A DNA stretch of 64,000 bases from Escherichia coli. Lineage in GTDB: Bacteria > Pseudomonadota > Gammaproteobacteria > Enterobacterales > Enterobacteriaceae. Below the pieces are notes generated by a model. That model was not told the DNA's origin, ran no database searches, and saw only the letters and a list, made by a program, of their open reading frames with translations. The translations under genes and the position numbers were made by a program. Positions 1,287 to 54,111 of this stretch are shown piece by piece; positions within the stretch are counted from its first letter, which is position 1; each line of letters begins with the position of its first letter. The stretch is taken from assembly GCF_046105845.1 (NCBI RefSeq), contig NZ_CP151004.1; one strand, written 5' to 3'.

Positions 1287-2156
1287 TTATTTCAGAACAG
1301 TTTTCAGTGCTTCACCGATATCCGCCAGGCTGCGAACGGTTTTCACGCCTGCGGCTTCCAGAGCAGCGAATTTCTCATCCGCAGTCCCTTTCCCACCGGC
1401 AATGATCGCACCCGCGTGGCCCATACGTTTGCCTTTCGGCGCAGTCACACCAGCGATGTAACCCACAACAGGCTTGGTAACGTGCTCTTTGATGTACGCA
1501 GCCGCTTCTTCTTCAGCGCTACCGCCGATCTCACCGATCATCACGATCGCTTCGGTCTGCGGATCTTTTTCGAACATTTCGAGGATGTCGATAAAGTTAG
1601 AGCCAGGGATCGGGTCGCCGCCGATACCGACACAGGTCGACTGACCGAAACCGTAATCCGTGGTCTGTTTAACCGCTTCATAGGTCAGTGTACCGGAACG
1701 GGAAACGATACCCACTTTACCCGGTTTGTGAATGTGACCCGGCTGGATACCGATTTTGCATTCACCCGGAGTGATTACGCCCGGACAGTTCGGGCCGATC
1801 ATACGAACGCCTGCTTCATCCAGTTTCACTTTCACGGTCAGCATATCCAGCGTCGGGATGCCTTCAGTGATGGTGATAATCAGTTTGATGCCTGCATCGA
1901 TGGCTTCCAGAATGGAGTCTTTGCAGAACGGTGCTGGTACGTAGATAACAGAAGCGGTAGCGCCAGTAGCAGCAACAGCTTCACGAACGGTGTTGAACAC
2001 CGGCAGGCCGAGGTGGGTGGTGCCGCCTTTACCTGGGGTTACGCCGCCAACCATTTTAGTGCCGTATGCAATAGCCTGTTCTGAGTGGAAAGTCCCCTGG
2101 CTACCGGTAAAGCCCTGGCAGATAACCTTGGTGTTTTTATCAATTAAAATGGACAT
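1287..2156 (-). CDS. sucD: Succinyl-CoA synthetase alpha subunit
   Basis: 289-aa [48 protein letters not shown]...; CoA-binding and phospho-His region recognisable. Its start overlaps the sucC stop. Confidence 0.97.
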
Positions 2157-3322
2157 TATTTCCCCTCCACTGCGGCAACAACCTGCTGAGCTGCATCCGT
2201 CAGACCTTTTGCTGCAATAATATTCAGGCCGCTGTCAGCCAGTTTCTTCGCGCCGAGTTCGGCGTTGTTACCTTCCAGACGTACCACGACCGGTACGTTA
2301 ACACCCACTTCCGCTACCGCGCCGATGATACCGTCAGCGATCAGGTCGCAACGAACGATACCGCCGAAGATGTTAACCAGAACGGCTTTCACTTTGTCGT
2401 CAGAGAGGATGATTTTGAACGCTTCGGTTACACGTTCTTTGGTTGCGCCGCCGCCAACGTCAAGGAAGTTAGCTGGTTCGCCGCCGTGCAGTTTAACGAT
2501 GTCCATCGTACCCATCGCCAGACCTGCGCCGTTAACCATACAACCGATGTTACCGTCCAGCGCAACGTAGTTCAGTTCCCACTGTGCAGCCTGTGCTTCA
2601 CGTGGATCTTCCTGCGACTGGTCACGCATTTCGCGCAGATCAGGCTGGCGGAACAGTGCGTTGCCATCAGCGCCCAGTTTGCCGTCGAGGCAAATCAGAT
2701 CGCCCTGTTTGGTGATGACCAGCGGGTTGATTTCGATCAGCGCCAGGTCGCGCTCCAGGAAAATGGTCGCCAGGCCCATGAAGATTTTGGTGAACTGCTG
2801 AACCAGTTTACCTTCCAGACCCAGTTTGAACGCCAGCTCGCGTCCCTGATACGGCATCGGGCCAGTCAGCGGATCAAGCGCAACTTTGTGGATCAGGTGC
2901 GGAGTTTCTTCCGCCACTTTTTCGATTTCCACGCCGCCTTCGGTGGAGGCCATAAAGACCACACGACGGGAACTACGGTCAACAACGGCACCGAGATACA
3001 GCTCTTTAGCGATATCGGTCGCTGCTTCAACCAGAATCTGGTTAACCGGTTGGCCATTGGCATCTGTTTGATACGTTACCAGACGCTTGCCCAGCCAGTT
3101 TTCTGCAAAAGCACGGATGTCTTCTTTGCTGTTTACAACTTTCACACCGCCCGCTTTACCGCGGCCACCAGCGTGAACCTGACATTTCACTACCCACGGA
3201 CCGGCACCGATTTTTGAAGCGGCTTCTTCTGCTTCGCGCGGAGTAGTACAGGCATAACCCACCGGTGCTGGTAAGCCATAGCGGGCAAAAAGTTGTTTTG
3301 CCTGATATTCATGTAAGTTCAT
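2156..3322 (-). CDS. sucC: Succinyl-CoA synthetase beta subunit
   Basis: 388-aa [42 protein letters not shown]... (ATP-grasp). Confidence 0.97.
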
Positions 3323-12930: not shown

Positions 12931-13259
12931 ATATGGCTGAACATAATAAATTGTAAAAATTAAACCAGATGCAAATACCCATTAATAAGGTGAAAAAATG
13001 TGACAAGTCACATACTGAGCAGAATGATAAGTTTATTTTTATACTTTCATGCCGGTAGCATTGTTAACCCAATGAAAATCATGCATATCCATCCCACCCC
13101 ATCCTTCATCTCATTAAACAATAAATTTATGCACTCAATTATTCCATTCTTTATATAACAAGCTTTTTAATATTGTTAAATAAAACCAAATACATTCAAC
13201 TGTCAGTTAATATATTCTTGCCTCGCAACACTCTATCTCATTATTTAAAGGACTCAGCT

Positions 13260-13826
13260 ATGTTTAAAGGACAAAAAACATTGGCCGCACTGGCCGTATC
13301 TCTGCTGTTCACTGCACCTGTTTATGCGGCTGATGAAGGATCCGGTGAAATTCACTTTAAAGGTGAAGTTATTGAAGCACCGTGTGAAATACATCAGGAT
13401 GATATTGATAAAGAAGTTGAACTCGGTCAGGTGACCACCAGCCACATTAATCAGTCGCATCACAGCGATGCCGTTGCTGTCGACCTGCGCTTAGTCAACT
13501 GCGATCTGGAAAACTCCAACAACGGTTCCGGCGGCAAGATTTCTAAAGTTGCAGTCACCTTTGACAGCTCAGCGAAAACCACCGGCGCAGATCCGATTCT
13601 CAACAACACCAGCACGGGTGAAGCGACCGGTGTCGGCGTGCGTTTAATGAATAAAGATCAAAGCAATATCGTTTTAGGCACCGCTACTCCAGATATCGAC
13701 CTGGCACCAACCTCCAGCGAACAAACGTTAAATTTCTTTGCGTGGATGGAACAAATTGATCAGGCTACGCCCGTAACACCAGGCGCAGTTACGGCGAATG
13801 CGACCTACGTACTGGATTATAAATAA
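13260..13826 (+). CDS. ybgD: Fimbrial major subunit-like protein (chaperone-usher pathway)
   Basis: Start chosen at MFKGQKTLAALAVSLLFTAPVYA (signal peptide) with an AGGA RBS upstream; 188 aa; C-terminal YVLDYK donor-strand-like tail. The track ORF begins further upstream at 13173. Confidence 0.88.
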   Translation: MFKGQKTLAALAVSLLFTAPVYAADEGSGEIHFKGEVIEAPCEIHQDDIDKEVELGQVTTSHINQSHHSDAVAVDLRLVNCDLENSNNGSGGKISKVAVTFDSSAKTTGADPILNNTSTGEATGVGVRLMNKDQSNIVLGTATPDIDLAPTSSEQTLNFFAWMEQIDQATPVTPGAVTANATYVLDYK

Positions 13827-13876
13827 GTATCACTTTGGCGGCGTCATCGCCGCCTTTCTTCAAATATTTATCAGGT

Positions 13877-16336
13877 ATGGACACCGTGAATATTTATCGA
13901 CTCTCTTTTATATCCTGCCTGGTCATGGCGATACCTTCCGCATTGGCGGTCGAATTCAACCTGAATGTCCTCGATAAATCGATGCGAGATCGCATTGATA
14001 TTTCATTATTAAAGGAAAAAGGGGGCATTGCTCCCGGTGAATATTTTGTTAGCGTTGCAGTAAATAACAACCAAATCAGTAACGGACAAAAAATTGACTG
14101 GAAAAAGAACGGTGACCAAACCATTCCGTGTATTAATGATTTACTGGTAGATAAATTTGGTTTAAAACCTGAAGTTCGTCAGTCGTTACCACGGTTAAAC
14201 CAGTGCGTCGATTTTAGCTCCCGGCCTGAAATTCTCTTCATTTTTGATCAGGCTAGCCAGCAACTGAATATCACTATTCCACAAGCCTGGCTGGCGTGGC
14301 ACTCAGATAACTGGACTCCCCCCTCAACATGGAAAGAAGGTGTCGCCGGCGTCCTGATGGATTACAACCTGTTTGCAAGCAGCTACCGCCCACAGGATGG
14401 TAGCAACAGCACTAACCTGAACGCCTATGGAACAGCCGGAATTAACGCCGGGGCATGGCGCTTACGCAGTGATTACCAGCTTAATAAGACCGATAGCGAA
14501 GATAACCATGACCAGTCAGGCGGAATATCGCGCACCTATCTTTTTCGTCCATTACCGCAATTAGGCTCTAAGTTAACCCTCGGCGAAACCGATTTCAGTT
14601 CCAATATTTTCGACGGCTTTTCTTATACCGGCGCGGCACTGGCAAGTGACGATCGGATGTTACCGTGGGAGCTACGCGGCTACGCCCCACAAATCAGCGG
14701 CATTGCACAAACCAACGCCACCGTCACCGTGAGTCACTCAGGGCGAGTTATTTACCAGAAAAAAGTCCCACCAGGTCCGTTTATCATTGATGACCTTAAT
14801 CAGTCCGTCCAGGGTACGTTGGATGTCAAAGTGACGGAAGAAGATGGTCGGGTGAACAATTTCCAGGTTTCGGCAGCATCGACGCCCTTCCTGACTCGCC
14901 AGGGACAGGTTCGCTATAAATTGGCCGCGGGTCAGCCACGGCCCTCCATGTCACATCAAACTGAAAATGAAACCTTTTTTAGCAATGAAGTTTCCTGGGG
15001 GATGCTGTCAAATACCTCGCTGTACGGCGGCCTGCTGATTTCGGGTGACGACTACCATTCTGCCGCAATGGGTATCGGGCAAAATATGCTCTGGCTTGGT
15101 GCATTGTCGTTTGATGTCACCTGGGCCAGTAGTCAGTTTGATACTCAGCAGGACGAGCGGGGCTTAAGTTACCGCTTTAATTACAGCAAACAAGTGGATG
15201 CCACTAACAGCACGATTTCGCTCGCCGCTTATCGCTTTTCAGATCGTCATTTTCACAGCTACGCCAACTATCTGGATCACAAATACAACGACAACGATGC
15301 GCAGGACGAAAAACAGACGATCAGCTTATCCGTGGGGCAACCGATTACCCCACTGAACCTCAATCTGTACGCCAACCTGCTGCATCAAACCTGGTGGAAT
15401 GCAGACGCCTCCACGACCGCCAACATCACGGCGGGTTTTAATGTTGATATTGGTAACTGGAGAGATATCTCGATCTCGACGTCATTCAATACAACCCATT
15501 ACGAAGATAAAGATCGCGACAATCAGATTTACCTGTCGATTTCGCTTCCCTTCGGTAACGGGGGGCGGGTCGGTTATGACATGCAAAACAGTAGTCAAAG
15601 CACCACGCACCGCATGTCGTGGAATGATACGTTGGATGAACGTAATAGCTGGGGCATGTCTACCGGACTGCAATCCGACCGTCCGGATAATGGAGCCCAG
15701 GTGAGCGGTAACTATCAGCACCTGAGTTCAGCGGGTGAGTGGGATATTTCTGGTACCTATGCCGCCAATGATTACAGTTCCGTCAGCAGCAGCTGGAGCG
15801 GTTCTTTCACGGCAACTCAATATGGTGCGGCGTTCCATCGTCGCAGCTCCACCAATGAACCACGTCTGATGGTCAGTACCGATGGCGTGGCAGATATTCC
15901 GGTTCAGGGCCATCTCGACTACACCAACCATTTTGGCATTGCGGTGGTGCCGTTGATTTCCAGTTATCAGCCTTCCACCGTGGCGGTGAACATGAATGAC
16001 TTACCCAACGGCGTAACAGTGGCAGAAAACGTTATCAAAGAAACGTGGATTGAAGGCGCGATAGGTTACAAATCACTGGCTTCCCGTTCCGGTAAAGACG
16101 TTAACGTCATCATTCGCAACGCCAGCGGTCAGTTCCCTCCCCTCGGTGCGGATATCCGCCAGGATGATAGCAGCATTAGCGTGGGGATGGTTGGCGAGGA
16201 AGGACACGCCTGGTTAAGTGGAGTCTCTGAAAATCAACAATTTACCGTGGTCTGGGGTGATAGCCAGCGTTGCTCGATCCATCTTCCTGAACATATGGAA
16301 GACACCGCAAATCGCCTGATTTTACCTTGTCATTAA
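13877..16336 (+). CDS. ybgQ: Fimbrial outer-membrane usher protein
   Basis: Large ORF (track: 13835..16336, 833 aa) with an usher-like N-terminal signal peptide MDTVNIYRLSFISCLVMAIPSALA. The exact start is uncertain (TTG 13835, ATG 13877 or GTG 13886). Confidence 0.88.
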   Translation: MDTVNIYRLSFISCLVMAIPSALAVEFNLNVLDKSMRDRIDISLLKEKGGIAPGEYFVSVAVNNNQISNGQKIDWKKNGDQTIPCINDLLVDKFGLKPEVRQSLPRLNQCVDFSSRPEILFIFDQASQQLNITIPQAWLAWHSDNWTPPSTWKEGVAGVLMDYNLFASSYRPQDGSNSTNLNAYGTAGINAGAWRLRSDYQLNKTDSEDNHDQSGGISRTYLFRPLPQLGSKLTLGETDFSSNIFDGFSYTGAALASDDRMLPWELRGYAPQISGIAQTNATVTVSHSGRVIYQKKVPPGPFIIDDLNQSVQGTLDVKVTEEDGRVNNFQVSAASTPFLTRQGQVRYKLAAGQPRPSMSHQTENETFFSNEVSWGMLSNTSLYGGLLISGDDYHSAAMGIGQNMLWLGALSFDVTWASSQFDTQQDERGLSYRFNYSKQVDATNSTISLAAYRFSDRHFHSYANYLDHKYNDNDAQDEKQTISLSVGQPITPLNLNLYANLLHQTWWNADASTTANITAGFNVDIGNWRDISISTSFNTTHYEDKDRDNQIYLSISLPFGNGGRVGYDMQNSSQSTTHRMSWNDTLDERNSWGMSTGLQSDRPDNGAQVSGNYQHLSSAGEWDISGTYAANDYSSVSSSWSGSFTATQYGAAFHRRSSTNEPRLMVSTDGVADIPVQGHLDYTNHFGIAVVPLISSYQPSTVAVNMNDLPNGVTVAENVIKETWIEGAIGYKSLASRSGKDVNVIIRNASGQFPPLGADIRQDDSSISVGMVGEEGHAWLSGVSENQQFTVVWGDSQRCSIHLPEHMEDTANRLILPCH

Positions 16337-16351
16337 TTAAGGAAATGAAAA

Positions 16352-17083
16352 ATGACATTTATGAAAGGACTTCCCCTTTTGTTGTTGATTGCCAGTCTCT
16401 GCAGCTACGCTGCGCTACAACCCGATCGCACTCGCATTGTGTTTAACGCTAATGATAAAGCCACCAGCCTGCGAGTGGATAATCGTAGCGATAAACTCCC
16501 CTACCTCGCTTATTCCTGGCTCGAAAATGAAAAAGGGGAGAAAAGCGATGATCTTCTGGTTGCCCTGCCACCGATACAACGTCTGGAACCGAAAGCAACA
16601 ACGCAGGTACGGATAGTAAAGCAAGTCTCGACCACAAAATTACCGGGCGATCGCGAAACGCTATTTTTCTACAATATGCGTGAAATTCCTCCCGCCCCGG
16701 AAAAAAATAGCGACCATGCCGTTCTGCAAGTCGCCATTCAGAGTCGTATCAAGGTATTCTGGCGACCGGCTGCATTACGCAAGAAAGCAGGAGAAAAGGT
16801 CGAACTGCAGTTACAGGTCAGCCAGCAGGGCAACCAACTGACACTGAAAAATCCTACCGCGTATTATCTGACCATTGCCTATCTGGGGAGAAATGAAAAA
16901 GGCGTTCTCCCGGGCTTCAAAACCGTGATGGTTGCGCCTTTTAGTACAGTAATTACAAACACCGGAAGTTATAGCGGCAGTCAGTTTTATCTCGGTTATA
17001 TGGATGATTACGGCGCGTTACGCATGACGACGCTCAATTGCAACGGACATTGCCGTTTACAAGCAGTGGAGGCGAAGAAATGA
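16352..17083 (+). CDS. ybgP: Periplasmic fimbrial chaperone (PapD-like)
   Basis: 243-aa [63 protein letters not shown]...; its stop overlaps the ybgO start. Confidence 0.9.
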
Positions 17084-18141
17084 GTACTGGCAAAGGATTG
17101 TTGCTCGTCATCTGTCTGTTATTTCTGCCATTGAAGTCTGCGCTAGCGCTGAACTGCTATTTTGGTACTTCCGGTGGAACGGTAGAAAAATCGGAAGCGA
17201 TTCAACCCTTTGCTGTGCCAGGTAATGCCAAACCCGGCGATAAGATTTGGGAATCTGACGATATTAAAATTCCCGTCTATTGTGACAACAATACCAACGG
17301 CAACTTTGAAAGTGAGCATGTCTACGCCTGGGTAAACCCCTACCCGGGGGTGCAGGATCGCTATTATCAACTCGGCGTAACTTACAATGGCGTTGATTAT
17401 GACGCCAACCAGGGAAAAAGCCGCATCGACACTAACCAGTGTATCGACAGTAAGAACATTGACATTTATACCCCTGAGCAGATTATCGCGATGGGATGGC
17501 AGAACAAAATTTGCTCGGGCGATCCCGCTAATATTCATATGTCGCGTACCTTTCTCGCTCGCATGCGGTTATACGTCAAAATACGAGAAATGCCTCCGCA
17601 TGATTATCAAAGTACGCTTAGCGACTATATCGTCGTGCAATTTGACGGTGCCGGTAGCGTTAACGAAGACCCTACCGCCCAAAACCTGAAATATCATATT
17701 ACTGGTCTGGAAAACATTCGCGTGCTGGATTGCAGCGTCAATTTTTCTATTTCACCAGAAACACAGGTGATTGATTTTGGTAAATTTAATTTGCTGGATA
17801 TTCGTCGCCACACAATGTCGAAAACATTCAGTATTAAGACGACAAAATCACAAAATGACCAATGCACCGACGGATTTAAAGTCAGTTCCTCCTTTTATAC
17901 CGAAGAAACGTTGGTTGAAGAAGATAAAGCATTGTTGATTGGTAATGGTCTGAAGCTACGTTTGCTGGATGAAAACGCCTCGCCTTATACCTTCAATAAA
18001 TATGCTGAATACGCCGATTTCACCAGCGATATGCTGATCTACGAAAAAACCTATACGGCTGAACTTTCGTCCATTCCAGGTACCCCCATCGAGGCTGGCC
18101 CCTTCGATACAGTGGTGCTTTTTAAGATTAACTATAACTGA
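17080..18141 (+). CDS. ybgO: Fimbrial minor subunit / putative tip adhesin
   Basis: Start set at [23 protein letters not shown] (353 aa) with a GGAGG RBS; the track ORF begins at 17038. Confidence 0.85.
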
Positions 18142-18292
18142 TTTGCCATGGTGTCCTTTGCAGCCGGAAAGGGCATCTCTTTCAGAAAATTGCTGATTTT
18201 CCCCTTTTCCTTGATTGCTGTTATTTTTTCCTGGCCCGGCTTTCTTTATGCTGTATCGATACACCAAAGAGAAAATAATGAGGGAGCGAAGG

Positions 18293-19339
18293 ATGCCAGT
18301 TTTGCAGTGGGGAATGTTATGTGTGCTATCACTTCTCCTTTCTATTGGTTTCCTCGCGGTACATCTCCCGGCGGCACTATTACTTGGGCCGATGATCGCC
18401 GGGATCATCTTTAGTATGCGCGGAATTACTCTGCAACTTCCCCGCTCCGCTTTTCTCGCCGCCCAGGCCATTCTTGGCTGCATGATTGCGCAAAACCTCA
18501 CTGGTTCGATTCTCACCACCCTGGCCGTCAACTGGCCGATCGTGCTTGCAATTTTACTGGTGACGCTGCTTTCCAGCGCCATCGTGGGTTGGTTATTGGT
18601 GCGCTATAGCTCACTGCCTGGAAATACCGGTGCCTGGGGTTCTTCTCCTGGCGGCGCGGCGGCAATGGTCGCTATGGCGCAAGATTACGGCGCAGATATT
18701 CGCCTGGTGGCGTTTATGCAATATCTGCGAGTGCTGTTCGTCGCAGGGGCCGCTGTTCTGGTCACCCGCATGATGCTGGGCGATAACGCTGAAGCGGTTA
18801 ACCAGCAGATCGTCTGGTTCCCGCCAGTGAGCATTAATCTCCTGCTTACGATTTTGCTCGCGGTCGTTGCCGGTACGGCGGGATGCTTGCTACGTCTTCC
18901 TTCCGGCACGATGCTCATCCCGATGCTGGCGGGCGCAGTGCTCCAGTCTGGTCAGCTCATCACGATTGAACTCCCGGAATGGCTGCTGGCGATGGCGTAT
19001 ATGGCAATTGGCTGGAGGATTGGTCTTGGTTTCGATAAGCAAATCTTACTGCGAGCATTGCGCCCACTGCCACAAATCTTGCTGTCGATTTTTGCTCTGC
19101 TGGCTATTTGTGCAGGTATGGCGTGGGGGCTGACCCGGTTTATGCATATTGATTTTATGACCGCCTACCTCGCCACCAGTCCCGGCGGGCTTGATACCGT
19201 GGCGGTCATCGCCGCAGGGAGCAATGCCGATATGGCGCTTATTATGGCGATGCAAACCCTGCGCCTGTTCAGTATTTTGCTGACGGGGCCAGCCATTGCG
19301 CGGTTTATTTCAACCTATGCGCCGAAGCGGTCGGCCTAG
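18293..19339 (+). CDS. abrB: AbrB-family inner membrane protein (putative regulator/transporter)
   Basis: Start set at [26 protein letters not shown] (348 aa) with RBS AGGGAG; polytopic hydrophobic protein. The track ORF begins at 18215. Confidence 0.9.
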
Positions 19340-20127
19340 TGCTGGCAGCCTGGACACCAGTAAAACGGGCGCGAGGACAACGTGGTTTTCTCAATGATGC
19401 TGCCACAGCGTTCACACGGTTCGCCATCACGATGAAAAACCTTAAAGCGAAACAACGCCCCATGATGTTTATTCTCATCCACCTGCCCCCGCGTAGCGTA
19501 AGAAAGTCGAGGAATATCCAGTAACGCGTGTGCGAGTGCATCCAGTTGCGCCGCACTGAGATCTTTCGCTTTATGATTGCCGGTTAACCCCACCTGCCAG
19601 AGGATCTCCACCCGCAAATAATTGCCAAGTCCTGCCAGAAACGCCTGATCGAGCAGTAATCCAGCAAACTGACGGTTACGAAAGCGCGGCGACAATAATC
19701 GTTCCTTTACCACCTCCGGCGTCAGATTCGGATCCAGCACATCGGGGCCAACGCGTTGTAAAAACGGATGCGTGGTCAGTTGTTCCGGGGTCAACATCTC
19801 AATATCCGAGGCGCTATAAAGCAGAATGGTTTTGTCAGCCGTTTGCAGTTTTACCCGCAATACTCGCGTGGTCTGCGGCTCTTCGCCGGTATCAACCACG
19901 CGCCAGACGCCGTAAAGCTGATTATGGCTGTAGAGCGTTAAACCGTTGGAAAAATGAGTTAACAACGCCTTACCTCGCGTTTCCACATGGGTAACGTGTT
20001 GACCGATAAGTTGTGATTGATAAGGTTCTAACTGCGGGAAGGCAAACCAGACATCAGTTAGTGGTTTGCCTTTGATCGCCGCCTCCAGGTTATCCGCTGC
20101 ACGGCGGATCTCCGGGCCTTCAGGCAT
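19336..20127 (-). CDS. nei: Endonuclease VIII (DNA glycosylase / AP lyase)
   Basis: 263-aa [36 protein letters not shown]... with N-terminal catalytic PEGPE and a C-terminal zinc finger (CERCGS...CPGCQ). Convergent with abrB, overlapping by 4 nt. Confidence 0.96.
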
Positions 20128-20162
20128 GGTGATATCCTTTTTTCATTCTTTATTAAGCGGGG

Positions 20163-20897
20163 TTATGCTGCGACAACAATCCCCTTTTCGGCAAATGTAG
20201 AGCGTAGTCGGCGGGCGAATGCCAGTGCGTGTTCTCCATCGCCATGCAGGCAGACCGTTTGCGCCGTGACCGTTGCCCATTCGCCGTTGATACTTTTGAC
20301 TCTGCCGTGTTGCACCATCTCCAACGTTTGCGCCAGCGCCTGTTCTTCGTTTTCAATCAACGCGCCTGGCTGGCTTCGCGGCACCAGCGAGCCGTCAGCC
20401 TGATAACCGCGATCGGCAAACACTTCCTCGCGCGTTATCAGACCATATCGCTTGCCTGCACGAATCAGCTCGCTTCCCGCCAGCCCGACGAGAATCAATG
20501 ACGGATCGCAAGCGTATACCGCTCTGGCGATGGCGTCTGCCAGTTGTGCCTCTTTCGCCGCCTGGTTGTATAACATGCCGTGCGGTTTGACATGACGCAT
20601 TACGCCCCCTTGTGCACGGGTAATCGCTGCCAGCGCGCCAATTTGATACAGCGTCTGGGCGTAAACGGTTTCTGGCGGCAGCTGCATGGCACTGCGACCA
20701 AAATTTTCCCGGTCGGGAAAACTCGGGTGAGCGCCAATCGCGACACCATTTTTTATTGCTTCACGCACGCAAGCCTGCATGATTTGCGCATCGCCTGCAT
20801 GAAATCCACAAGCAATATTGGCAGAGGAAACCAGCGTTAATAGCTCTGCGTCGCTGGCGCAGCCTTCGCCCAGATCGGCGTTCAGGTCAATTTTCAT
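20163..20897 (-). CDS. pxpA: 5-oxoprolinase subunit A (LamB/YcsF family)
   Basis: 244-aa [43 protein letters not shown]... Confidence 0.95.
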
Positions 20898-21819
20898 TGT
20901 GCAGCCGCCACGCTAATTGTTCGAAATAACGTTGTTGATCTTGCCGCGCTTTCAGTGCCTCTTCCAGTGAACACTGGACAAAATGAATCGGCTGACCGAG
21001 CGGAATTTGCGCCAGATGGTACATATCAGCCTCAATGATACAGGCAATACGCGGATAACCACCGGTGGTCTGTGCGTCGTTCATCAATACAATCGGCTGG
21101 CCGTTATGCGGCACTTGCACCACACCCGGCAACAAACCGTGAGATAACAGTTCGCGATCGGTGGTGCGTTTTAAAATTTGCCCCTGTAAGCGATAGCCCA
21201 TGCGGTTACTTTGCGGACTAAGCTGCCAGGGCGAACGCCAGAATGCATCCTGCGAGGCGCGATCGAACTCATGATATTCCGGCCCCGGCAAGGCGCGAAT
21301 GCGGTTGCCCCACAGCAGCTGTTTAACGCCCTGCGCTTCCATAAAATCACGCTTCGATTTACCCATCGGGAGTCGGTCACCATCCTTCAGTAAACGGCCT
21401 TCCAGCCCGCCAATCCCCACTTTGAGATCGGTACTGCATGACCCCATTACCGGCGGAACATCAATACCACCCGCGACCGCCAGATAACTGCGCATCCCGT
21501 GCAGCGGGCGTTTAAGCGTTAAACGCTGGCCTGCTTTCATCGGCAATCGCCAGCCAGTCCAGACGGCATTATCATCCAGCCGCGCTTCGCAACCTGCCCC
21601 CGTCAGGGCAAACCACCCATCAGTTTCGAACTCTACCGTTAACTGACCGAGCGTTATCTCCAGCGCGGGGGCATTGGCGTCATTACCCACCAGCAGGTTA
21701 GCAATGCGTAACGCAGGCATATCCAGTGCGCCGCAGTGGCTGATACCCGACTGGCGAAAACCGTGACGACCGCCATCCTGCACAGTGGTATACATGCCCG
21801 CACGAATAATCTTCAGCAT
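20887..21819 (-). CDS. pxpC: 5-oxoprolinase subunit C
   Basis: 310-aa [36 protein letters not shown]... Confidence 0.93.
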
Positions 21820-22469
21820 ACTCCCTCCTTCTGCGGTACAAAGCGCACGCTGTCTCCCGGACGTAATAAGATGGGTTCGTCACGCGCCGGATCAAACAGG
21901 CTGAGTGAGGTATGACCAATCAACTGCCAGCCACCCGGCGTTGCCAGCGGATAAACACCAGTCTGTGGCCCGCCGATCCCGACAGAACCTGCCGGAACGA
22001 GCAAGCGCGGTTCAGCGCGCCGTGGCGTGTGTATTTGTTCCGGCAAACTCCCGAGATACGGGAAGCCCGGTTGAAAACCTAAAAACCAGACCACGTATTC
22101 CACGGAGGAGTGTAATTCAACAACCTGTTTCTCACTCAACCCACAATGCGCCGCGACCACCGCTAAATCCGGTCCGCCTGCACCACCGTAAACCACCGGA
22201 ATTTCAATAAAGCGAGACTCCGGCTCCAGCGCCTCACTCTCCTCCCACCAGCGTTGCAAACGCTCTATGGCATCCAGCGCCAGCGACTCAGGATTACGCA
22301 AAATCACCGTGATATTGTTCATGCCGGGAATGGCTTCAACCACATTCGGCATATCCACCAGACGCTGTGCCAGTCGCCAGATCCGTTTCTGGCTAGCCAG
22401 CGTCACCGGCGGTTCCAGTTCCAGCACTACCGCCGTTTCACCTATCAGATAACAACGCGCTCGTTGCAC
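21813..22469 (-). CDS. pxpB: 5-oxoprolinase subunit B
   Basis: 218-aa [40 protein letters not shown]...; overlaps pxpC. Confidence 0.93.
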
Positions 22470-22491
22470 TTTCGATCCCTCTGATTATTCG

Positions 22492-23235
22492 TTATGCAGG
22501 ATTAGGAATATCAATAAAGGTCACATCAAGATCGGTATTTTCATTCAGCCACTCGCTCAACGCGCGAATACCACCACGTTCAGTGGCATGGTGACCCGCA
22601 GCATAAAAATGCAATCCCTGCTCGCGGGCTGAATGAATGGTCTGTTCAGAAACTTCGCCAGTAATAAAAGCATCCACGCCAAAACGCGCGGCGCTATCGA
22701 TAAAACTTTGCCCGCCGCCCGTGCACCAGGCAACGCGCTGGACCACCTCAGGTCCGGTATCGCCACACCATAACGGCTTACGTCCCAGACGCGCTTCAAT
22801 CCAGGAGGCTAGTTCCAGTCCCGGCACAGGCATGGTCAGTTCGCCCCACGGCACCAACGGCTCAATTTCGCCCATGACCGTGATCCCCAGTAACGCCGCC
22901 AGCTGTGCGTTATTGCCCAGCTCAGGATGTGCGTCAAGCGGCAAATGCCAGCCATACAGGTTGATATCATTTGCCAGCAACGTTTTTAAACGGTTACGCT
23001 TCATGCCGCGAATGACCGGAGATTCGCCTTTCCAGAAGTAGCCATGATGCACAATGACCGCATCCGCGCCCAGACGCACTGCCTCATCGAGCAAAGCCTG
23101 GCTGGCAGTGACACCGGTAACAATTTTTTGCACCGTCTCTTTGCCTTCCACCTGCAAACCATTCGGCGCGTAATCACTAATCGCCGCGCTGTTCAGTTTT
23201 TCGTTAATCAGTTGTTCCAGTTCGGTGTTTTTCAT
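22492..23235 (-). CDS. ybgI: Nif3-family metal-binding protein (GTP cyclohydrolase 1 type 2 homolog)
   Basis: 247-aa ORF MKNTELEQLINEKLNSAAISDYAPNGLQVEGKETVQKIVTGVTAS... Confidence 0.95.
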   Translation of the reverse strand: MKNTELEQLINEKLNSAAISDYAPNGLQVEGKETVQKIVTGVTASQALLDEAVRLGADAVIVHHGYFWKGESPVIRGMKRNRLKTLLANDINLYGWHLPLDAHPELGNNAQLAALLGITVMGEIEPLVPWGELTMPVPGLELASWIEARLGRKPLWCGDTGPEVVQRVAWCTGGGQSFIDSAARFGVDAFITGEVSEQTIHSAREQGLHFYAAGHHATERGGIRALSEWLNENTDLDVTFIDIPNPA

Positions 23236-23322
23236 CTTCGCGCCTTCCGTATTCTGATAGCTACACCGTTAACATAGCGTTACCTCGCCTGTTCGTCGAT
23301 AGCCAATCTTTTGACATATTAA

Positions 23323-24987
<1,665 letters not shown>

Positions 24988-24999
24988 CAGGCCAGCACC

Positions 25000-25130
25000 G
25001 ATGCCTGATGCGACGCTTAATGCGTCTTATCAGGCCTGGATTTCCCTGCAATATATTGAATTTGCACTATTTGCCAGGCCGGAGAAGGCGTTCACGCAGT
25101 ATCCGGCATCCGGGCAAGATTGCCTGACGC
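25000..25130. repeat. REP (repetitive extragenic palindrome) cluster between convergent dtpD and phr
   Basis: GCCTGATGCGACGCTTAATGCGTCTTATCAGGCC and a second GCCGGA...TCCGGC unit; typical E. coli REP sequence. Confidence 0.75.
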
Positions 25131-25135
25131 GTCTG

Positions 25136-26554
25136 TTATTTCCCCTTCCTCGCCGCCTCATACGCTGCCAACGTTCGTACTCTCGCTTCTTTGTGATCGA
25201 CAATCGGTTGCGGATAATCCAGCGTCACACCTGATTTATCTGCCCACTTCCACGGCTCATGCACCGCTTTCCCTGGTACATCGCGCAACTCTGGTAGCCA
25301 CCGGCGGATAAACTCGCCTTCGCGGTCAAATTTCTCGCCCTGGGTTGTCGGGTTAAAAATACGAAAATACGGCGCTGCATCGGTTCCGGTTGAAGCGGCC
25401 CACTGCCAGCCACCGTTATTGGCTGCCAAATCACCATCAATCAGCTGCGACACGAAATATCGCTCGCCTTCGCGCCAGTCGATCAATAAATCTTTCACCA
25501 AAAAACTGGCTGTAATCATCCGTAGCCGGTTATGCATCCAGCCAGTGCTGTTAAGCTGACGCATGGCAGCATCAACAATCGGGTATCCCGTTTTACCTTC
25601 TTGCCAGGCTTTAAAATGGGCGGGATTGCGCTGCCACTGCACACGATCCGTCCAGACAATAAACGGACGATGTTTACACAGCGAAGGATAATACGTCATC
25701 AAATGGCGGTAGAACTCGCGCCAGATCAACTCATTAAGCCAGACACTACCGGCCCCATCTTCCAGCGCCTGCGGCTGTTCCGCCAACAGGCGATGTAGAC
25801 ACTGGCGAGGCGATAACCCGCCCGTTGCCAGGCTGGCGGACAAACGGCTGGTACCTTCAACTGCCGGAAAATCTCGTTGTTGCTCATACTCTCCGGCACC
25901 GTTCTGGCAAAACTGGCGTAATTGCGCAATCGCCGCTTTTTCTTCCACCGGGAAATGCGCAGTATCGAAAGGCTGACGAGGATAACTCAGCGTAATGGAT
26001 GGCGCGGGAGCTATCGATCCGCTACTACGTACTTTTGGCGCAGCGACGCACTCCGGCATCCCTTCCCGCAACCGTTTCAGCCAGGCGTTTTTAAATGGCG
26101 TAAAGACTTTGTACATCTCATGATTGCCAGTCATCACCGTCCCCGGCGGCAGGATCACGCTGTCGTCAAATCCTTCACACACCACGTTACGCAGCGTTCT
26201 CTCAACCTGCACATCCCGCGCCCGCTCATTCACCTCATACTGATAGTTATAAAAAAGATGAGTAACGCTGTTTTCCGCGCACACCTGTTTAACTATTTCG
26301 ACGCTGGCGGCAAAGTCATCCACTTCACGGAACAATAAAGGAATGCCTTTTTCCGCCAGCGCGATTTGTAGCCCATTCAGTTGAGCATTGATAAGTTCAG
26401 CCTGACGCGGCGACACATTATGCGCCGCCCACTGGCGTGGGGTAGCGATATACAACGCCAGCACGCGCGCAGACGAATTGCGGCAGGCGGCAGCCAGCGC
26501 GAGATTATCGTGCTGACGTAAATCCTGGCGAAACCAGACCAGATGGGTAGTCAT
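25136..26554 (-). CDS. phr: Deoxyribodipyrimidine photolyase
   Basis: 472-aa ORF MTTHLVWFRQDLRQHDNLALAAACRNSSARVLALYIATPRQWAAH...; FAD-binding C-terminal domain. Confidence 0.96.
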   Translation of the reverse strand: MTTHLVWFRQDLRQHDNLALAAACRNSSARVLALYIATPRQWAAHNVSPRQAELINAQLNGLQIALAEKGIPLLFREVDDFAASVEIVKQVCAENSVTHLFYNYQYEVNERARDVQVERTLRNVVCEGFDDSVILPPGTVMTGNHEMYKVFTPFKNAWLKRLREGMPECVAAPKVRSSGSIAPAPSITLSYPRQPFDTAHFPVEEKAAIAQLRQFCQNGAGEYEQQRDFPAVEGTSRLSASLATGGLSPRQCLHRLLAEQPQALEDGAGSVWLNELIWREFYRHLMTYYPSLCKHRPFIVWTDRVQWQRNPAHFKAWQEGKTGYPIVDAAMRQLNSTGWMHNRLRMITASFLVKDLLIDWREGERYFVSQLIDGDLAANNGGWQWAASTGTDAAPYFRIFNPTTQGEKFDREGEFIRRWLPELRDVPGKAVHEPWKWADKSGVTLDYPQPIVDHKEARVRTLAAYEAARKGK

Positions 26555-27060
26555 AAAACTCCTGCATGGCGCAAGTTAATCACACGCGGCCAAAGTTCGA
26601 AATAACGCTGCCCTGAAAGCCAGGCGTCAGGATAAAGCGCCATATAGTGTTTGATACGCATCAGCGGCGCAAGAAGCGGTTGCTCGCCACGGCGATAACT
26701 GTCGATAAGCGCCGCCAGCTGCTGGCGTTCTGTGGAATCAATATGCGGGCGAAAATACCCCTGAACGTGCATCAAAACGTTGGTGTGATCGCGCGGGTTG
26801 GCGGGATGAGAAAGCAAAACAATTACGCGTTGGCGGTACTGGCTGTAAAAATCATCCAGATTTTGCCACTGATGAATATCAGCCACAAACGGGCCAAGTT
26901 TGCGGTATTCCGGCTGAGAATGAGCCAGAAAGACGAGTTTATAGCGGCTGTGATAATCGAGAAGCGCCCCGCGCGTTAAGCCTCGCTCTTTAAGACGGTA
27001 TAACTCCTGCAAAGCAAAAATGCGAATAAGGGTGCTGTCATCAAATCGTTGTAGATTCAT
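26551..27060 (-). CDS. ybgA: DUF1722-family protein, cotranscribed upstream of phr
   Basis: Start set at MNLQRFDDSTLIRIFALQELYRL (169 aa) with an AGGAG RBS; the track ORF begins at 27129. Its stop overlaps the phr start. Confidence 0.88.
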   Translation of the reverse strand: MNLQRFDDSTLIRIFALQELYRLKERGLTRGALLDYHSRYKLVFLAHSQPEYRKLGPFVADIHQWQNLDDFYSQYRQRVIVLLSHPANPRDHTNVLMHVQGYFRPHIDSTERQQLAALIDSYRRGEQPLLAPLMRIKHYMALYPDAWLSGQRYFELWPRVINLRHAGVL

Positions 27061-27161
27061 TACTGCTCCTGAACGGTTTACAGGAGTAAGTGTAGACGGC
27101 GAAAAGAAAAAAACCGCCAGCGTTTCCACTAGCGGTTTTCAATGTATTCAAAACTCAGCAA

Positions 27162-32095: not shown

Positions 32096-34772
32096 CGAAC
32101 CCTTACGTCCCGATCCCGATCGTCTGCTGGAACAAACTGCCGCGCCGCATCGGGGGAAGCTGAAAGTTTTCTTCGGTGCCTGTGCGGGCGTCGGGAAGAC
32201 CTGGGCGATGCTGGCAGAGGCCCAGCGACTGCGGGCGCAAGGGCTGGATATTGTGGTTGGCGTGGTTGAAACCCACGGGCGGAAAGATACCGCCGCAATG
32301 CTGGAAGGGCTGGCTGTTCTGCCGCCCAAACGCCAGGCGTACCGTGGGCGGCACATCAGCGAGTTTGATCTCGATGCCGCCCTCGCCCGCCGTCCGGCGC
32401 TGATCTTAATGGACGAACTGGCGCACAGTAATGCGCCAGGTTCTCGTCATCCTAAACGCTGGCAGGACATCGAAGAGCTGCTGGAAGCGGGCATTGATGT
32501 TTTCACAACCGTCAACGTTCAGCATCTGGAAAGTCTGAATGATGTGGTCAGCGGCGTCACCGGAATTCAGGTACGGGAAACCGTGCCCGATCCTTTTTTC
32601 GATGCCGCCGACGACGTGGTGCTGGTGGACTTGCCCCCGGACGATCTGCGCCAGCGGCTGAAAGAAGGCAAAGTCTATATTGCCGGGCAGGCGGAGCGCG
32701 CCATTGAACATTTTTTTCGCAAAGGCAATCTGATCGCCCTGCGCGAACTGGCACTGCGCCGTACTGCCGATCGCGTAGATGAGCAAATGCGCGCCTGGCG
32801 GGGGCATCCTGGCGAAGAGAAAGTGTGGCACACGCGCGACGCGATCCTTTTATGCATCGGGCATAACACCGGCAGTGAGAAACTGGTCCGCGCGGCGGCG
32901 CGGCTGGCGTCGAGGCTGGGTAGCGTCTGGCACGCGGTGTATGTTGAAACCCCTGCCCTGCATCGCTTACCGGAGAAAAAACGTCGGGCAATTCTCAGCG
33001 CCTTACGTCTGGCGCAGGAGCTGGGCGCGGAGACGGCAACACTTTCTGATCCAGCGGAAGAGAAAGCGGTAGTGCGTTATGCCCGTGAACATAATCTCGG
33101 CAAGATTATTCTCGGTCGCCCGGCCTCACGCCGCTGGTGGCGTCGGGAAACGTTTGCTGACCGACTGGCGCGCATCGCCCCCGATCTCGATCAGGTGCTG
33201 GTCGCGCTTGATGAACCACCCGCCCGCACGATTAACAACGCGCCGGATAGCCGCTCTTTTAAAGACAAGTGGCGGGTACAGATTCAGGGATGCGTGGTTG
33301 CCGCCGCGTTATGCGCCGTTATCACCTTAATTGCCATGCAGTGGCTGATGGCGTTTGATGCCGCCAACCTGGTGATGCTGTATCTACTTGGCGTGGTGGT
33401 GGTGGCGCTATTTTATGGACGCTGGCCTTCGGTGGTTGCTACCGTCATTAATGTGGTGAGTTTCGATCTCTTTTTTATCGCCCCACGCGGCACGCTCGCC
33501 GTCTCTGATGTGCAATATCTGCTGACCTTCGCGGTGATGTTAACCGTCGGGCTGGTGATCGGGAACCTTACTGCTGGCGTGCGTTATCAGGCGCGGGTAG
33601 CCCGTTACCGCGAGCAACGCACACGGCACTTATATGAAATGTCGAAAGCACTGGCGGTGGGCCGCAGTCCGCAGGACATCGCCGCCACCAGCGAACAATT
33701 TATTGCCTCCACGTTTCATGCCCGCAGCCAGGTGTTGCTGCCTGATGACAACGGTAAATTGCAGCCGTTAACACATCCGCAAGGAATGACGCCGTGGGAC
33801 GATGCCATCGCGCAGTGGGGTTTTGATAAAGGCCTGCCTGCGGGTGCGGGCACCGACACGTTACCCGGCGTGCCGTACCAGATTTTGCCGTTAAAAAGCG
33901 GTGAGAAAACCTACGGACTGGTGGTGGTGGAGCCGGGGAATCTGCGCCAGTTGATGATCCCGGAACAGCAGCGCCTGCTGGAGACGTTTACGCTGTTAGT
34001 CGCCAATGCCCTTGAGCGGCTGACGCTAACCGCCAGCGAAGAACAGGCGCGGATGGCAAGCGAACGTGAACAGATCCGCAACGCCCTGCTGGCGGCGCTT
34101 TCGCATGATTTACGCACTCCGCTTACGGTGCTGTTCGGTCAGGCAGAAATCTTAACGCTCGATCTGGCGAGCGAAGGATCGCCCCACGCCCGCCAGGCCA
34201 GCGAGATTCGTCAGCATGTGCTGAACACGACCCGACTGGTGAATAATCTACTGGATATGGCGCGAATTCAGTCCGGCGGCTTTAATTTGAAGAAAGAGTG
34301 GTTAACGCTGGAAGAAGTGGTCGGCAGCGCGCTGCAAATGCTGGAACCGGGTTTATCGTCGCCTATCAATCTTTCTCTGCCAGAACCGCTGACCTTAATC
34401 CGCGTTGACGGGCCACTGTTTGAACGGGTGCTGATTAATCTGCTGGAGAACGCGGTGAAATACGCGGGTGCACAGGCCGAAATTGGTATCAATGCCCACG
34501 TTGAGTGCGAAAATCTAGAACTGGATGTCTGGGATAACGGCCCCGGTCTTCCACCAGGCCAGGAGCAGACGATATTTGATAAGTTTGCTCGCGGGAATAA
34601 AGAGTCGGCGGTACCGGGTGTAGGGCTTGGGTTGGCAATTTGTCGGGCGATAGTGGATGTACACGGCGGCACCATTACCGCATTCAACCGACCGGAAGGT
34701 GGTGCCTGTTTTCGTGTTACACTTCCCCAGCAAACAGCCCCTGAACTTGAAGAATTTCATGAGGATATGTGA
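32088..34772 (+). CDS. kdpD: Sensor histidine kinase KdpD
   Basis: Start set at [41 protein letters not shown] (894 aa), overlapping kdpC by 8 nt; H-box LSHDLRTPL and an HATPase domain. Confidence 0.96.
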
Positions 34773-35446
34773 CAAACGTTCTGATTGTTGAAGATGAACA
34801 GGCTATTCGTCGCTTTCTGCGCACGGCGCTGGAGGGCGATGGGATGCGCGTCTTTGAGGCCGAAACGCTGCAACGCGGCTTGCTGGAAGCGGCAACCCGT
34901 AAGCCAGATTTGATTATTCTCGATCTCGGCCTGCCCGATGGTGATGGGATTGAGTTTATCCGCGACCTGCGCCAGTGGAGCGCGGTGCCGGTGATTGTGC
35001 TTTCCGCACGTAGCGAAGAGAGCGACAAAATCGCCGCGCTGGATGCCGGAGCGGATGATTACCTGAGTAAGCCATTTGGTATTGGCGAATTGCAGGCCCG
35101 TCTGCGCGTCGCTTTACGCCGCCACTCCGCCACCACCGCGCCCGATCCGCTGGTGAAATTTTCCGATGTTACCGTCGATTTAGCGGCTCGTGTGATCCAT
35201 CGCGGTGAGGAAGAGGTGCATCTCACACCAATTGAGTTTCGCCTGCTGGCGGTGCTGCTCAACAATGCCGGAAAAGTGCTCACCCAGCGCCAGCTCCTTA
35301 ACCAGGTGTGGGGACCAAACGCGGTCGAACACAGTCATTATTTGCGTATTTATATGGGGCATCTGCGACAAAAACTGGAGCAAGATCCCGCCCGCCCCCG
35401 CCACTTCATTACTGAAACCGGTATTGGGTATCGGTTTATGCTTTAG
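34769..35446 (+). CDS. kdpE: Response regulator KdpE (OmpR family)
   Basis: GTG start overlapping the kdpD stop; 225 aa [31 protein letters not shown]...; receiver plus winged-helix domains. Confidence 0.96.
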   Translation: MTNVLIVEDEQAIRRFLRTALEGDGMRVFEAETLQRGLLEAATRKPDLIILDLGLPDGDGIEFIRDLRQWSAVPVIVLSARSEESDKIAALDAGADDYLSKPFGIGELQARLRVALRRHSATTAPDPLVKFSDVTVDLAARVIHRGEEEVHLTPIEFRLLAVLLNNAGKVLTQRQLLNQVWGPNAVEHSHYLRIYMGHLRQKLEQDPARPRHFITETGIGYRFML

Positions 35447-35455
35447 GCGGTTAAA

Positions 35456-35556
35456 TGCTGGATCCGGCATGAACGCCTTATCCGGCCTACAAAATAGCGC
35501 AAATTCAATATATTGCACCATCTTCCCAGGCCTGATAAGCGTAGCGCATCAGGCAG
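35456..35556. repeat. REP elements between convergent kdpE and pgm
   Basis: ATCCGGCATGAACGCCTTATCCGGCCTAC and CCTGATAAGCGTAGCGCATCAGGC units. Confidence 0.7.
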
Positions 35557-35564
35557 TCATAAGT

Positions 35565-35596
35565 AAAAAAGGGCGATCTTCCGACCGCCCTTTTTC
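35565..35596. terminator. Bidirectional rho-independent terminator (pgm / kdpE)
   Basis: AAAAAAGGGCGatcttccgaCCGCCCTTTTT: a GC hairpin flanked by an A-run and a T-run. Confidence 0.7.
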
Positions 35597-35609
35597 TTAT
35601 TAAATGTGT

Positions 35610-37250
35610 TTACGCGTTTTTCAGAACTTCGCTAACAATCTCAACCGCTTCTTTCTCAATCTGCTTGCGATGTTCTTCCCCGAGGAAGCTTTCGCAATAA
35701 ATCTTGTACGCGTCTTCCGTGCCTGACGGACGCGCGGCGAACCAGCCGTTGTCAGTCATCACTTTCAGACCGCCAATAGAAGCACCGTTGCCCGGAGCAG
35801 CAGTCAGGCGTGCGGTGATCGGGTCACCTGCCAGGGTGCTGGCGCTCACCATTTCCGGAGACAGCTTAGACAGCGCCGCTTTTTGTGCGGAAGTCGCAGC
35901 TGCCTGCAAACGGTTGTAGCTCGGCGCACCAAAGCGTTTTGCCAGTTCGTTGTAGTGTTCCTGCGGGTTCTTACCGGTGACAGCGGTGATTTCCGCCGCC
36001 AGCAGACACATGATGATGCCGTCTTTGTCGGTGGACCACGGCGTGCCGTCGAAACGCAGGAAGGAAGCCCCTGCGCTCTCTTCGCCGCCAAAGCCGAAGC
36101 TGCCGTCGAACAGACCATCAACAAACCATTTGAAACCTACCGGGACTTCTACCAGCTTACGGCCCAAATCATTGACCACACGGTCGATCATCGCAGAAGA
36201 AACCAGCGTTTTACCGACAGCAACATCTTTGCCCCACTGCGGACGATGCTGGAACAGGTAGTTGATCGCCACCGCCAGGTAGTGGTTCGGATTCATCAAA
36301 CCTGCCGGAGTGACGATACCGTGACGGTCATAATCCGGGTCGTTAGCAAACGCCAGATCGAACTTATCACGCAGTGCCAGCAGGCCCGCCATCGCACACT
36401 CGGAGGAGCAGTCCATACGGATCGCGCCGTCTTTATCGAGGTGCATAAAGCGGAAGGTTTGATCGACCTGATCGTTAACGATGGTCAGGTTGAGGTTGTA
36501 ATACTCGCCAATGCGCTTCCAGTATTCGATACCGGAACCACCCAGCGGATCAACGCCCAGCGTCAGGCCCGCTTTCTGAATCGCCGCCATATCAACGATA
36601 TCGGCCAGCCCTTCCACAAACGGCTGCACCAGATCCTGCTCTTTCACATGACCGGATGCCATCGCTTCGTCGAGGGAGATACGCTTCACGCCTTTCAGGC
36701 CATCAGCCATCAGTGCGTTGGCCCTGTCTTCCACCACTTTAGTGACGTTGGTATCAGCCGGGCCACCATTTGGCGGATTGTACTTGATACCACCATCTTC
36801 CGGCGGGTTATGAGACGGTGTGATCACGATACCGTCTGCCAGCGGGCCACCTTTTTTATTGTGAACCAGGATGGCATTGGAAACGGCAGGCGTCGGGGTG
36901 AAGCCATTGTTTTCCTGCACAATGACATCAACGCCATTCGCTGCCAGCACTTCCAGTACGGAAATGAACGCAGGCTCGGACAGGGCGTGAGTATCTTTAC
37001 CCACATAGCAAGGGCCAGTGATGCCGTTTTTCGCACGTTCTTCAGCAATTGCCTGAGCGATCGCCAGAATGTGCGGCTCGTTAAAGCTGTGGCGCGCTGC
37101 ACTGCCACGGTGACCGGAAGTACCGAATTTCACCGCGTGCTCCGCATTCCCTGCTTCTGGTTTCAGTACATAATATTGCGCCGTCAGTTGGGCGACGTTA
37201 ATCAAATCACTCTGTTGTGCAGGTTGGCCTGCACGATTGTGGATTGCCAT
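35610..37250 (-). CDS. pgm: Phosphoglucomutase
   Basis: Start set at [35 protein letters not shown] (546 aa); active-site TSGHRGS. The track ORF runs to 37301. Confidence 0.96.
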
Positions 37251-53406: not shown

Positions 53407-53483
53407 TGGCTACGTAGCTCAGTTGGTTAGAGCACATCACTCATAATGATGGGGTCACAGGTTCGAATCCCGTCGTAGCCACC
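53407..53483 (+). tRNA. metT: tRNA-Met (CAU, elongator)
   Basis: GGCTACGTAGCTCAGTTGGTTAGAGCACATCACTCATAATGATGGGGTCACAGGTTCGAATCCCGTCGTAGCCACCA; anticodon loop CTCATAA. Confidence 0.95.
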
Positions 53484-53492
53484 ATCTTTTTT

Positions 53493-53578
53493 GCGGGAGT
53501 GGCGAAATTGGTAGACGCACCAGATTTAGGTTCTGGCGCCGCAAGGTGTGCGAGTTCAAGTCTCGCCTCCCGCACCAT
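53493..53578 (+). tRNA. leuW: tRNA-Leu (UAG)
   Basis: GCGGGAGTGGCGAAATTGGTAGACGCACCAGATTTAGGTTCTGG...CTCGCCTCCCGCACCA; long variable arm; anticodon TAG. Confidence 0.93.
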
Positions 53579-53600
53579 TCACCAGAAAGCGTTGTACGGA

Positions 53601-53675
53601 TGGGGTATCGCCAAGCGGTAAGGCACCGGTTTTTGATACCGGCATTCCCTGGTTCGAATCCAGGTACCCCAGCCA
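53601..53675 (+). tRNA. glnU: tRNA-Gln (UUG)
   Basis: TGGGGTATCGCCAAGCGGTAAGGCACCGGTTTTTGATACCGGCATTCCCTGGTTCGAATCCAGGTACCCCAGCCA. Confidence 0.95.
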
Positions 53676-53709
53676 TCTTCTTCGAGTAAGCGGTTCACCG
53701 CCCGGTTAT

Positions 53710-53784
53710 TGGGGTATCGCCAAGCGGTAAGGCACCGGTTTTTGATACCGGCATTCCCTGGTTCGAATCCAGGTACCCCAGCCA
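53710..53784 (+). tRNA. glnW: tRNA-Gln (UUG), second identical copy
   Basis: Identical in sequence to glnU. Confidence 0.95.
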
Positions 53785-53799
53785 TCGAAGAAACAATCT

Positions 53800-53876
53800 G
53801 GCTACGTAGCTCAGTTGGTTAGAGCACATCACTCATAATGATGGGGTCACAGGTTCGAATCCCGTCGTAGCCACCA
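53800..53876 (+). tRNA. metU: tRNA-Met (CAU, elongator), second identical copy
   Basis: Identical in sequence to metT. Confidence 0.95.
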
Positions 53877-53924
53877 AATTCTGAATGTGTCGAATAAGTT
53901 CGGCAAATTCACAAACCAATTTGT

Positions 53925-53999
53925 TGGGGTATCGCCAAGCGGTAAGGCACCGGATTCTGATTCCGGCATTCCGAGGTTCGAATCCTCGTACCCCAGCCA
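53925..53999 (+). tRNA. glnV: tRNA-Gln (CUG)
   Basis: TGGGGTATCGCCAAGCGGTAAGGCACCGGATTCTGATTCCGGCATTCCGAGGTTCGAATCCTCGTACCCCAGCCA. Confidence 0.95.
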
Positions 54000-54036
54000 A
54001 TTTATTCAAGACGCTTACCTTGTAAGTGCACCCAGT

Positions 54037-54111
54037 TGGGGTATCGCCAAGCGGTAAGGCACCGGATTCTGATTCCGGCATTCCGAGGTTCGAATCCTCG
54101 TACCCCAGCCA
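54037..54111 (+). tRNA. glnX: tRNA-Gln (CUG), second identical copy
   Basis: Identical in sequence to glnV. Confidence 0.95.

Follow-up and report, generated by a model that had tools for sequence, protein, structure and literature searches.

The question raised by this locus is how kdpE came to lie directly beside pgm in an E. coli strain, when E. coli K-12 carries the speF-potE block between them. A 64-kb stretch of E. coli DNA, hereafter the window, was analyzed. The kdpE CDS (response regulator) was located at 34769–35446 on the + strand, with its TAG stop at 35444–35446, and the pgm CDS (phosphoglucomutase) at 35610–37250 on the − strand, with its TAA stop at 35610–35612. KdpE scored 487.6 bits against a cut-off of 325 (NCBIfam NF007820) and had 100% protein identity to K-12 KdpE. 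Pgm scored 1073 bits against a cut-off of 778 (TIGR01132), with 99.8% protein identity to K-12 Pgm at 37250–35613. KdpD, SeqA, and YbfF were also identified around the pair by family models. The exact KdpE sequence occurred in 48,732 blocks of the sequence collection searched, for the most part in speF-bearing contexts. The stop codons and family models confirmed that kdpE and pgm adjoin directly and convergently, 163 bp apart (35447–35609). From the kdpE stop to the pgm stop, the spacer consists of 10 nt, REP1, a 37-nt linker, an inverted REP2, and a hairpin. An independent assembly (Logan ERR13115083) was 100% identical across the junction over 10,685 bp, so the arrangement is real and not an assembly artefact.

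The gene order in K-12 MG1655 is pgm-ybfP-ybfG'-ybfI'-potE-speF-speFL-kdpE, as the original prediction had stated. The speFL-speF-potE cassette (b4803, b0693, and b0692, respectively) encodes a leader peptide, an acid-inducible ornithine decarboxylase, and a putrescine/ornithine antiporter. It occupies the same interval, bounded by kdpE and pgm, as the spacer of the window. K-12 differs from the window in having speFL-speF-potE together with ybfP, ybfG', and the kdpE remnant ybfI', all of which are missing from the interval in the window; the predicted absence of the block relative to K-12 was thus verified. When K-12 proteins were searched against the window by tblastn, SpeF, PotE, SpeFL, and YbfP had no match in the 64 kb, and only seqA, pgm, kdpE, kdpD, and ybfF were matched. 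The window strain would accordingly have neither inducible ornithine decarboxylase nor the putrescine/ornithine antiporter, unless they are encoded outside the 64-kb window. SpeC, the biosynthetic enzyme, is encoded beyond the window.

Other differences from K-12 were seen elsewhere in the window. At 27098–27108, ybfA and ybgA are adjacent, as they are in E. fergusonii, and the K-12 RhsC element (729,394–738,963, about 9.5 kb) with rhsC, ybfB, ybfO, ybfC, ybfQ, ybfL, and ybfD is absent. The region 13046–27098, from upstream of gltA to ybgA and including the ybgD-ybgO fimbrial genes, was 93.7% identical to K-12, which is unusually divergent for E. coli; the neighbouring suc/sdh genes were 98.3–98.9% identical. 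Positions 1–1183 had no homology to K-12 mngR/mngA beyond sdhX, and a − strand reading frame (about 1–640) that runs off the window end resembled a LysR-type regulator by eye. No IS-sized interruption was found in the colinear alignment of window 1184–35444 to K-12. Seven + strand tRNA genes (Rfam RF00005) were located at 53408–54108, as expected near asnB and glnS, and these were the only Rfam families found in the whole window at gathering thresholds.

The two REP units and the single GC hairpin with A/T runs that had been predicted in the spacer were recovered by REP matching, inverted arms, and folding. REP1 (35457–35490, + strand) ends in CTAC (35487–35490) and matches the classical REP GCCGGATGCGGCGTGAACGCCTTATCCGGCCTAC with 3 mismatches (0.00 chance matches expected), and forms a hairpin on folding. 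REP2 (35528–35555, − strand) is inverse to REP1, with inverted arms at 35477–35488 and 35528–35539, and also forms a hairpin in the fold. Between them lies a 37-nt L-type linker (35491–35527) with the IHF-like motif AAATTCAATATATTGCA at 35501–35517. This 17-mer occurs at the kdpE-pgm locus in K-12 and E. fergusonii as well, and a second copy in the window (25047–25063; 0.01 chance matches expected) lies inside another REP pair. That second pair, at 24990–25110 on the − strand, is also of BIME-1 type.

The spacer pair corresponds to the element named BIME-1, also called RIP/RIB. BIME-1 consists of two inverse REPs in single copy, with a long conserved L linker that often binds IHF (Ton-Hoang et al., PMC3333891). 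The window likewise has an inverse REP pair in single copy and a long linker with the conserved AAATTCAATATATTGCA; judged by these features, the spacer pair is a BIME-1-type element with a putative IHF site in its linker. It differs in REP2, which carries CCAG at 35524–35531 where the conserved GTAG is expected. The CCAG form is shared with E. coli PCN033 and with strains that have only ybfP in the interval, and GTAG stands at this position in K-12, E. whittamii, and the lineage of Escherichia sp. SCPM-O-B-8794. The GTAG tetranucleotide has been reported as necessary for recognition by the REP-associated transposase (PMC3333891).

Downstream of the REP pair, a bidirectional, intrinsic-terminator-like hairpin was identified by folding at 35565–35595, with the structure A6 - GGGCGATC TTCC GACCGCCC - T5. 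Its arms are AAAAAGGGCGATC and GACCGCCCTTTTT (35566–35595), with an 8-bp GC core preceded by six A and followed by five T. Folding energies for the + and − strands were −17.3 and −22.8 kcal/mol, with z values of −5.6 and −5.9, respectively, and none of 200 shuffles folded as well. A consensus terminator scan did not list the hairpin at 35565–35595, probably because the A/T runs pair and lengthen the stem. The hairpin was kept in all alleles and Escherichia species examined, and in O55:H7-type strains the same hairpin sits between potE and pgm. It would probably end both the kdpFABCDE and the pgm transcripts, and the BIME would lie within the kdp 3' untranslated region. No promoter-like site was found by the scan of the spacer, and no Rfam family was found in it.

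The origin of these elements was examined by comparison with K-12. The window matches K-12 through kdpE as far as the stop codon, and the match takes up again at REP1. The kdpE stop is TAG in the window and TGA in the K-12, O55:H7, and E. fergusonii arrangements, so that homology to speF-containing alleles breaks off within the stop codon itself. Window 35457–35609 and the spacer between pgm and ybfP in K-12 are colinear, and both contain these two REPs, the linker, and the terminator. In E. fergusonii and in ybfP-only strains, pgm is likewise flanked by this BIME and terminator. Because of the colinearity with K-12 and E. fergusonii, the REPs and the hairpin belong to the usual 3' flank of pgm and are not deletion debris. 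The original prediction that they had been left behind by loss of the block did not stand, since they are resident pgm flank; its suggestion that REPs mark breakpoints was borne out, with breakpoints at or in REP1.

The 10-nt linker between the kdpE stop and REP1 (35447–35456, GCGGTTAAAT) was delimited by alignment of direct-adjacency alleles. It is the same in ybfP-only strains and different in PCN033, N3, E. whittamii, and the SCPM-O-B-8794 lineage. The CGGTTAA within it was considered as a relic of the potE 3' end and rejected, being too short and missing in other direct-adjacency variants.

The distribution of arrangements was investigated in 5,426 complete E. coli genomes, with speF-potE presence scored at ≥80% coverage. 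The window arrangement, kdpE-BIME-terminator-pgm (type A), was found in 95 genomes (1.75%), so that direct adjacency is a minority state; had it been the common arrangement, the original prediction would have been refuted. The ybfP-only arrangement, kdpE-BIME-ybfP-BIME-pgm (type B), accounted for about 258 genomes, types A and B together for 353. The K-12-like arrangement with ybfI', ybfG, and ybfP (C1) was counted in about 1,774 genomes by ybfG and ybfP at ≥80% coverage. The arrangement kdpE-speFL-speF-potE-56 bp-pgm, which has no ybfP, ybfG, or ybfI and is seen for example in O55:H7 (C2), was put at about 3,260 genomes by subtracting C1 from the 5,038 genomes with speF-potE. An E. fergusonii-like arrangement, potE terminator-X-BIME-pgm terminator (C3), was present in 2 genomes. 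The most common E. coli state is therefore C2, and the K-12 arrangement is not typical.

The cassette was missing at ≥80% coverage from 388 of the 5,426 genomes (about 7%). Among these, 295 had no match at all and 81 had only matches of 60–80% identity, which argues against relocation of speF-potE.

Type A carriers included O145:H28, porcine O139:H1, PCN033, and human isolates, and their hosts were ecologically mixed (human, swine, cattle, dog, and mink). O145:H28 RM12581, TUM14771, porcine O139:H1, and PCN033 shared the gene order of the window, its REP-linker-REP-terminator series, and its junction at the kdpE stop, with spacers of 161–163 bp. Identity of type A relatives over a 141-bp junction query was 93–98.6%. 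No identical junction was found among the complete genomes; the best match reached 98.6% at the junction and 98.1% along 9.3 kb, and the best identity of the window to complete E. coli genomes was only 98.5%. In view of this last figure, Shigella or a cryptic clade was considered as the source and rejected, since the K-12 alignment of window 1184–35444 had no IS-sized interruption, KdpD is assigned to E. coli by its sources, and E. whittamii and the SCPM lineage were only about 93.5% identical. PCN033 and N3 differ from the window in having another linker, of 10–12 nt, and a canonical REP1 5' half. The kdpE of N3 (NZ_CP031609.1) is annotated as frameshifted.

A recent, lineage-specific REP-REP deletion of a K-12-like 5.7-kb block (ybfP to speFL), with the REPs as its scar, would fit the presence of the block in K-12, the halt of homology at the kdpE stop with its restart at REP1, and the chimeric look of the window REP1. 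Such a deletion is nevertheless highly improbable. The same junction is shared by the 95 complete genomes, whose lineages are unrelated, and by two further Escherichia species. K-12 has no REP beside kdpE that could act as recombination partner, and the region 3' of kdpE there is the AT-rich region upstream of speFL. The 5' half of the window REP1 matches nothing in K-12, and the K-12-like arrangement is itself derived. Since the same junction is found in diverse E. coli, in E. whittamii, and in another Escherichia lineage, the window allele is an established, circulating minority allele and not a private or unusual deletion.

The derived character of the K-12-like arrangement is seen on the potE side. 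The K-12 ybfI pseudogene, just downstream of potE, duplicates 142 bp of the kdpE 3' end and shares 88.7% identity with the window kdpE. Between potE and ybfI, K-12 carries a second terminator copy, a sequence designated X, and a partial REP, which was left unoriented because REPs are palindromic and it could be either half. The X sequence also stands upstream of the pgm-side BIME in K-12. A kdpE 3' remnant downstream of potE suggests that the K-12-type cassette joined next to an older kdpE. On the evidence of this remnant and the repeated flank, the K-12-like arrangement is a derived mosaic.

Both sides of the window junction are matched by type B, in which two direct REP1 copies flank ybfP. 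Window 35447–35484 and the kdpE-proximal side of type B have the same sequence, and window 35470–35609 differs from its pgm-proximal side by a single base. The 5' half of the window REP1 thus corresponds to the kdpE-proximal REP1 of type B, and its 3' half with the downstream sequence to the pgm-proximal REP1. The core common to both copies and to the window is 35470–35484. The window REP1 reads as a chimera of the two type B copies, with 35470–35484 as the proposed crossover zone. Sub-type A1 of type A and type B would then be related by a single REP1 × REP1 event, in either direction. A1 may be the product of recombination between the direct REP1 copies around ybfP, and the reverse event, an insertion that duplicated REP1, would be equally compatible.

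The first direction was considered in its specific form, in which the last step to A1 was a 647-bp deletion (ybfP and X) from a type B ancestor through the direct REP1 copies, speF-potE having been lost earlier. The overlap of the two type B matches at 35470–35484 agrees with it, and the X-BIME-terminator-pgm series appears to be the older right flank, since E. fergusonii and K-12 have it too. An insertion of ybfP into the REP1 of type A with duplication of the REP would yield the same pattern, however, and among the 80 Enterobacterales species loci described below, ybfP was found only in E. coli. Type A alleles with a canonical REP1 occur in outgroup species, and gene conversion, to which REPs are prone, can look like chimerism. 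Deletion from type B as the last step is a credible account, held at somewhat under even chances.

The locus was further compared in 80 Enterobacterales species representatives, anchored on KdpE. Direct kdpE/pgm adjacency was found in 33 of the 80, including all Pantoea, several Serratia, Dickeya, Buttiauxella, Mangrovibacter, some Citrobacter, Enterobacter, and Klebsiella, and two Escherichia (E. whittamii and Escherichia sp. SCPM-O-B-8794). These two carried the whole spacer architecture and junction of the window at about 93% identity. The empty sites of Citrobacter, Klebsiella, Pantoea, Buttiauxella, and others resemble the window in having convergent kdpE and pgm and a short spacer with a hairpin terminator, but these spacers are often only 39–106 bp, against 163 bp in the window. 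In the two Citrobacter spacers that were compared with the window by alignment, those of Awk4 and C. youngae, the Escherichia BIME was lacking. The speFL-speF-potE cassette was present in 29 of the 80 loci, always at the kdpE-pgm site and in the same orientation. Its carriers included E. albertii, E. fergusonii, Enterobacter, Kluyvera, and many Citrobacter, and the state was patchy inside Citrobacter, Enterobacter, and Phytobacter.

The wide occurrence of direct adjacency, in 33 of 80 representatives and throughout Pantoea, could mean that type A is an ancestral, never-occupied site kept in a minority of Escherichia, with the cassette alleles as derived insertions. The position of ybfI 3' of potE in K-12, with a cassette inserted next to an older kdpE, would agree with this. 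However, E. albertii, E. fergusonii, most E. coli, Enterobacter, Kluyvera, and many Citrobacter carry the cassette at this very site, which makes it most likely that the Escherichia ancestor possessed it. The X sequence, which accompanies the BIME elsewhere, is also missing from type A. An ancestral empty site is rather unlikely. X stands ahead of REP1 in E. fergusonii, K-12, and type B. Because E. albertii, E. fergusonii, and most E. coli (about 93%) have the cassette and type A is without X, we lean towards an origin of type A by an old deletion, or at least towards an old allele.

Whether the type A genomes share a common flank was analyzed with 16 sequences. Type A strains were 2.3–3.5% apart in kdpDE and did not cluster by flank, and O145:H28 was closest to the cassette-bearing O55:H7. 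Allele exchange was inferred from these incongruent flanks. We consider it likely that the window carries a pre-existing, shared type A allele, in a recombination-prone interval whose alleles are swapped by homologous recombination. The interval holds at least five structural alleles in E. coli, and the conservation of kdpDE and pgm to either side would let ordinary homologous recombination in these flanks exchange them between strains and species. Such exchange would place the cassette-free allele on unrelated flanking haplotypes, and also in E. whittamii and the second Escherichia lineage.

The cassette itself also varies within E. coli. The 5' half of speF differed by up to 12% (K-12 versus 94-3024 or SCU-122), as much as between species, and potE differed by only 0.5–3.4% among the same strains. 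The kdpE-speF spacer was 595 bp in K-12 and about 689 bp in others. The divergence of the speF 5' half suggests imports from divergent sources, and by these measures the speF-potE locus is a mosaic.

The structural breakpoints at the locus appear to fall recurrently at or in REP1. Three rearrangements would share it: type A versus the E. fergusonii type, A1 versus type B, and, in K-12, the joining of the potE flank to ybfI. A stronger proposal would be that REP1 was reused as breakpoint in independent rearrangements, that the polymorphism is old and crosses species, and that REP-specific processing drives gain and loss of the speF-potE module. The processing might involve a REP-associated tyrosine transposase, or gyrase acting at REPs, instead of generic homology. 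This proposal is speculative, and we would give it only a minor chance.

In practical terms, about 6–7% of complete E. coli genomes, the window strain included, are expected to be without SpeF/PotE functions. In one paper, speF is described as often being a pseudogene in E. coli. For annotators, K-12 should not be taken as typical at kdpE-pgm. The site is a compact, well-populated, multi-allelic site of accessory genes with breakpoints coinciding with a REP, and may offer a system in which to study REP-associated recombination or what SpeF/PotE contribute to fitness. A literature search covering speF/potE with phylogroup, kdpE/pgm, Shigella deletion, and ybfI found no account of a kdpE-pgm polymorphism. 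The components are all of known kinds, the arrangement is already present in annotated public genomes, and the variation is ordinary accessory-gene variation.

In Shigella and enteroinvasive E. coli, the region of the lysine decarboxylase gene cadA has been lost, leaving so-called black holes. The kdpE-pgm locus resembles this system in that an acid-inducible amino-acid decarboxylase/antiporter module is naturally missing from some Escherichia lineages. It differs in that type A carriers are ecologically mixed, with no sign of pathoadaptive selection.
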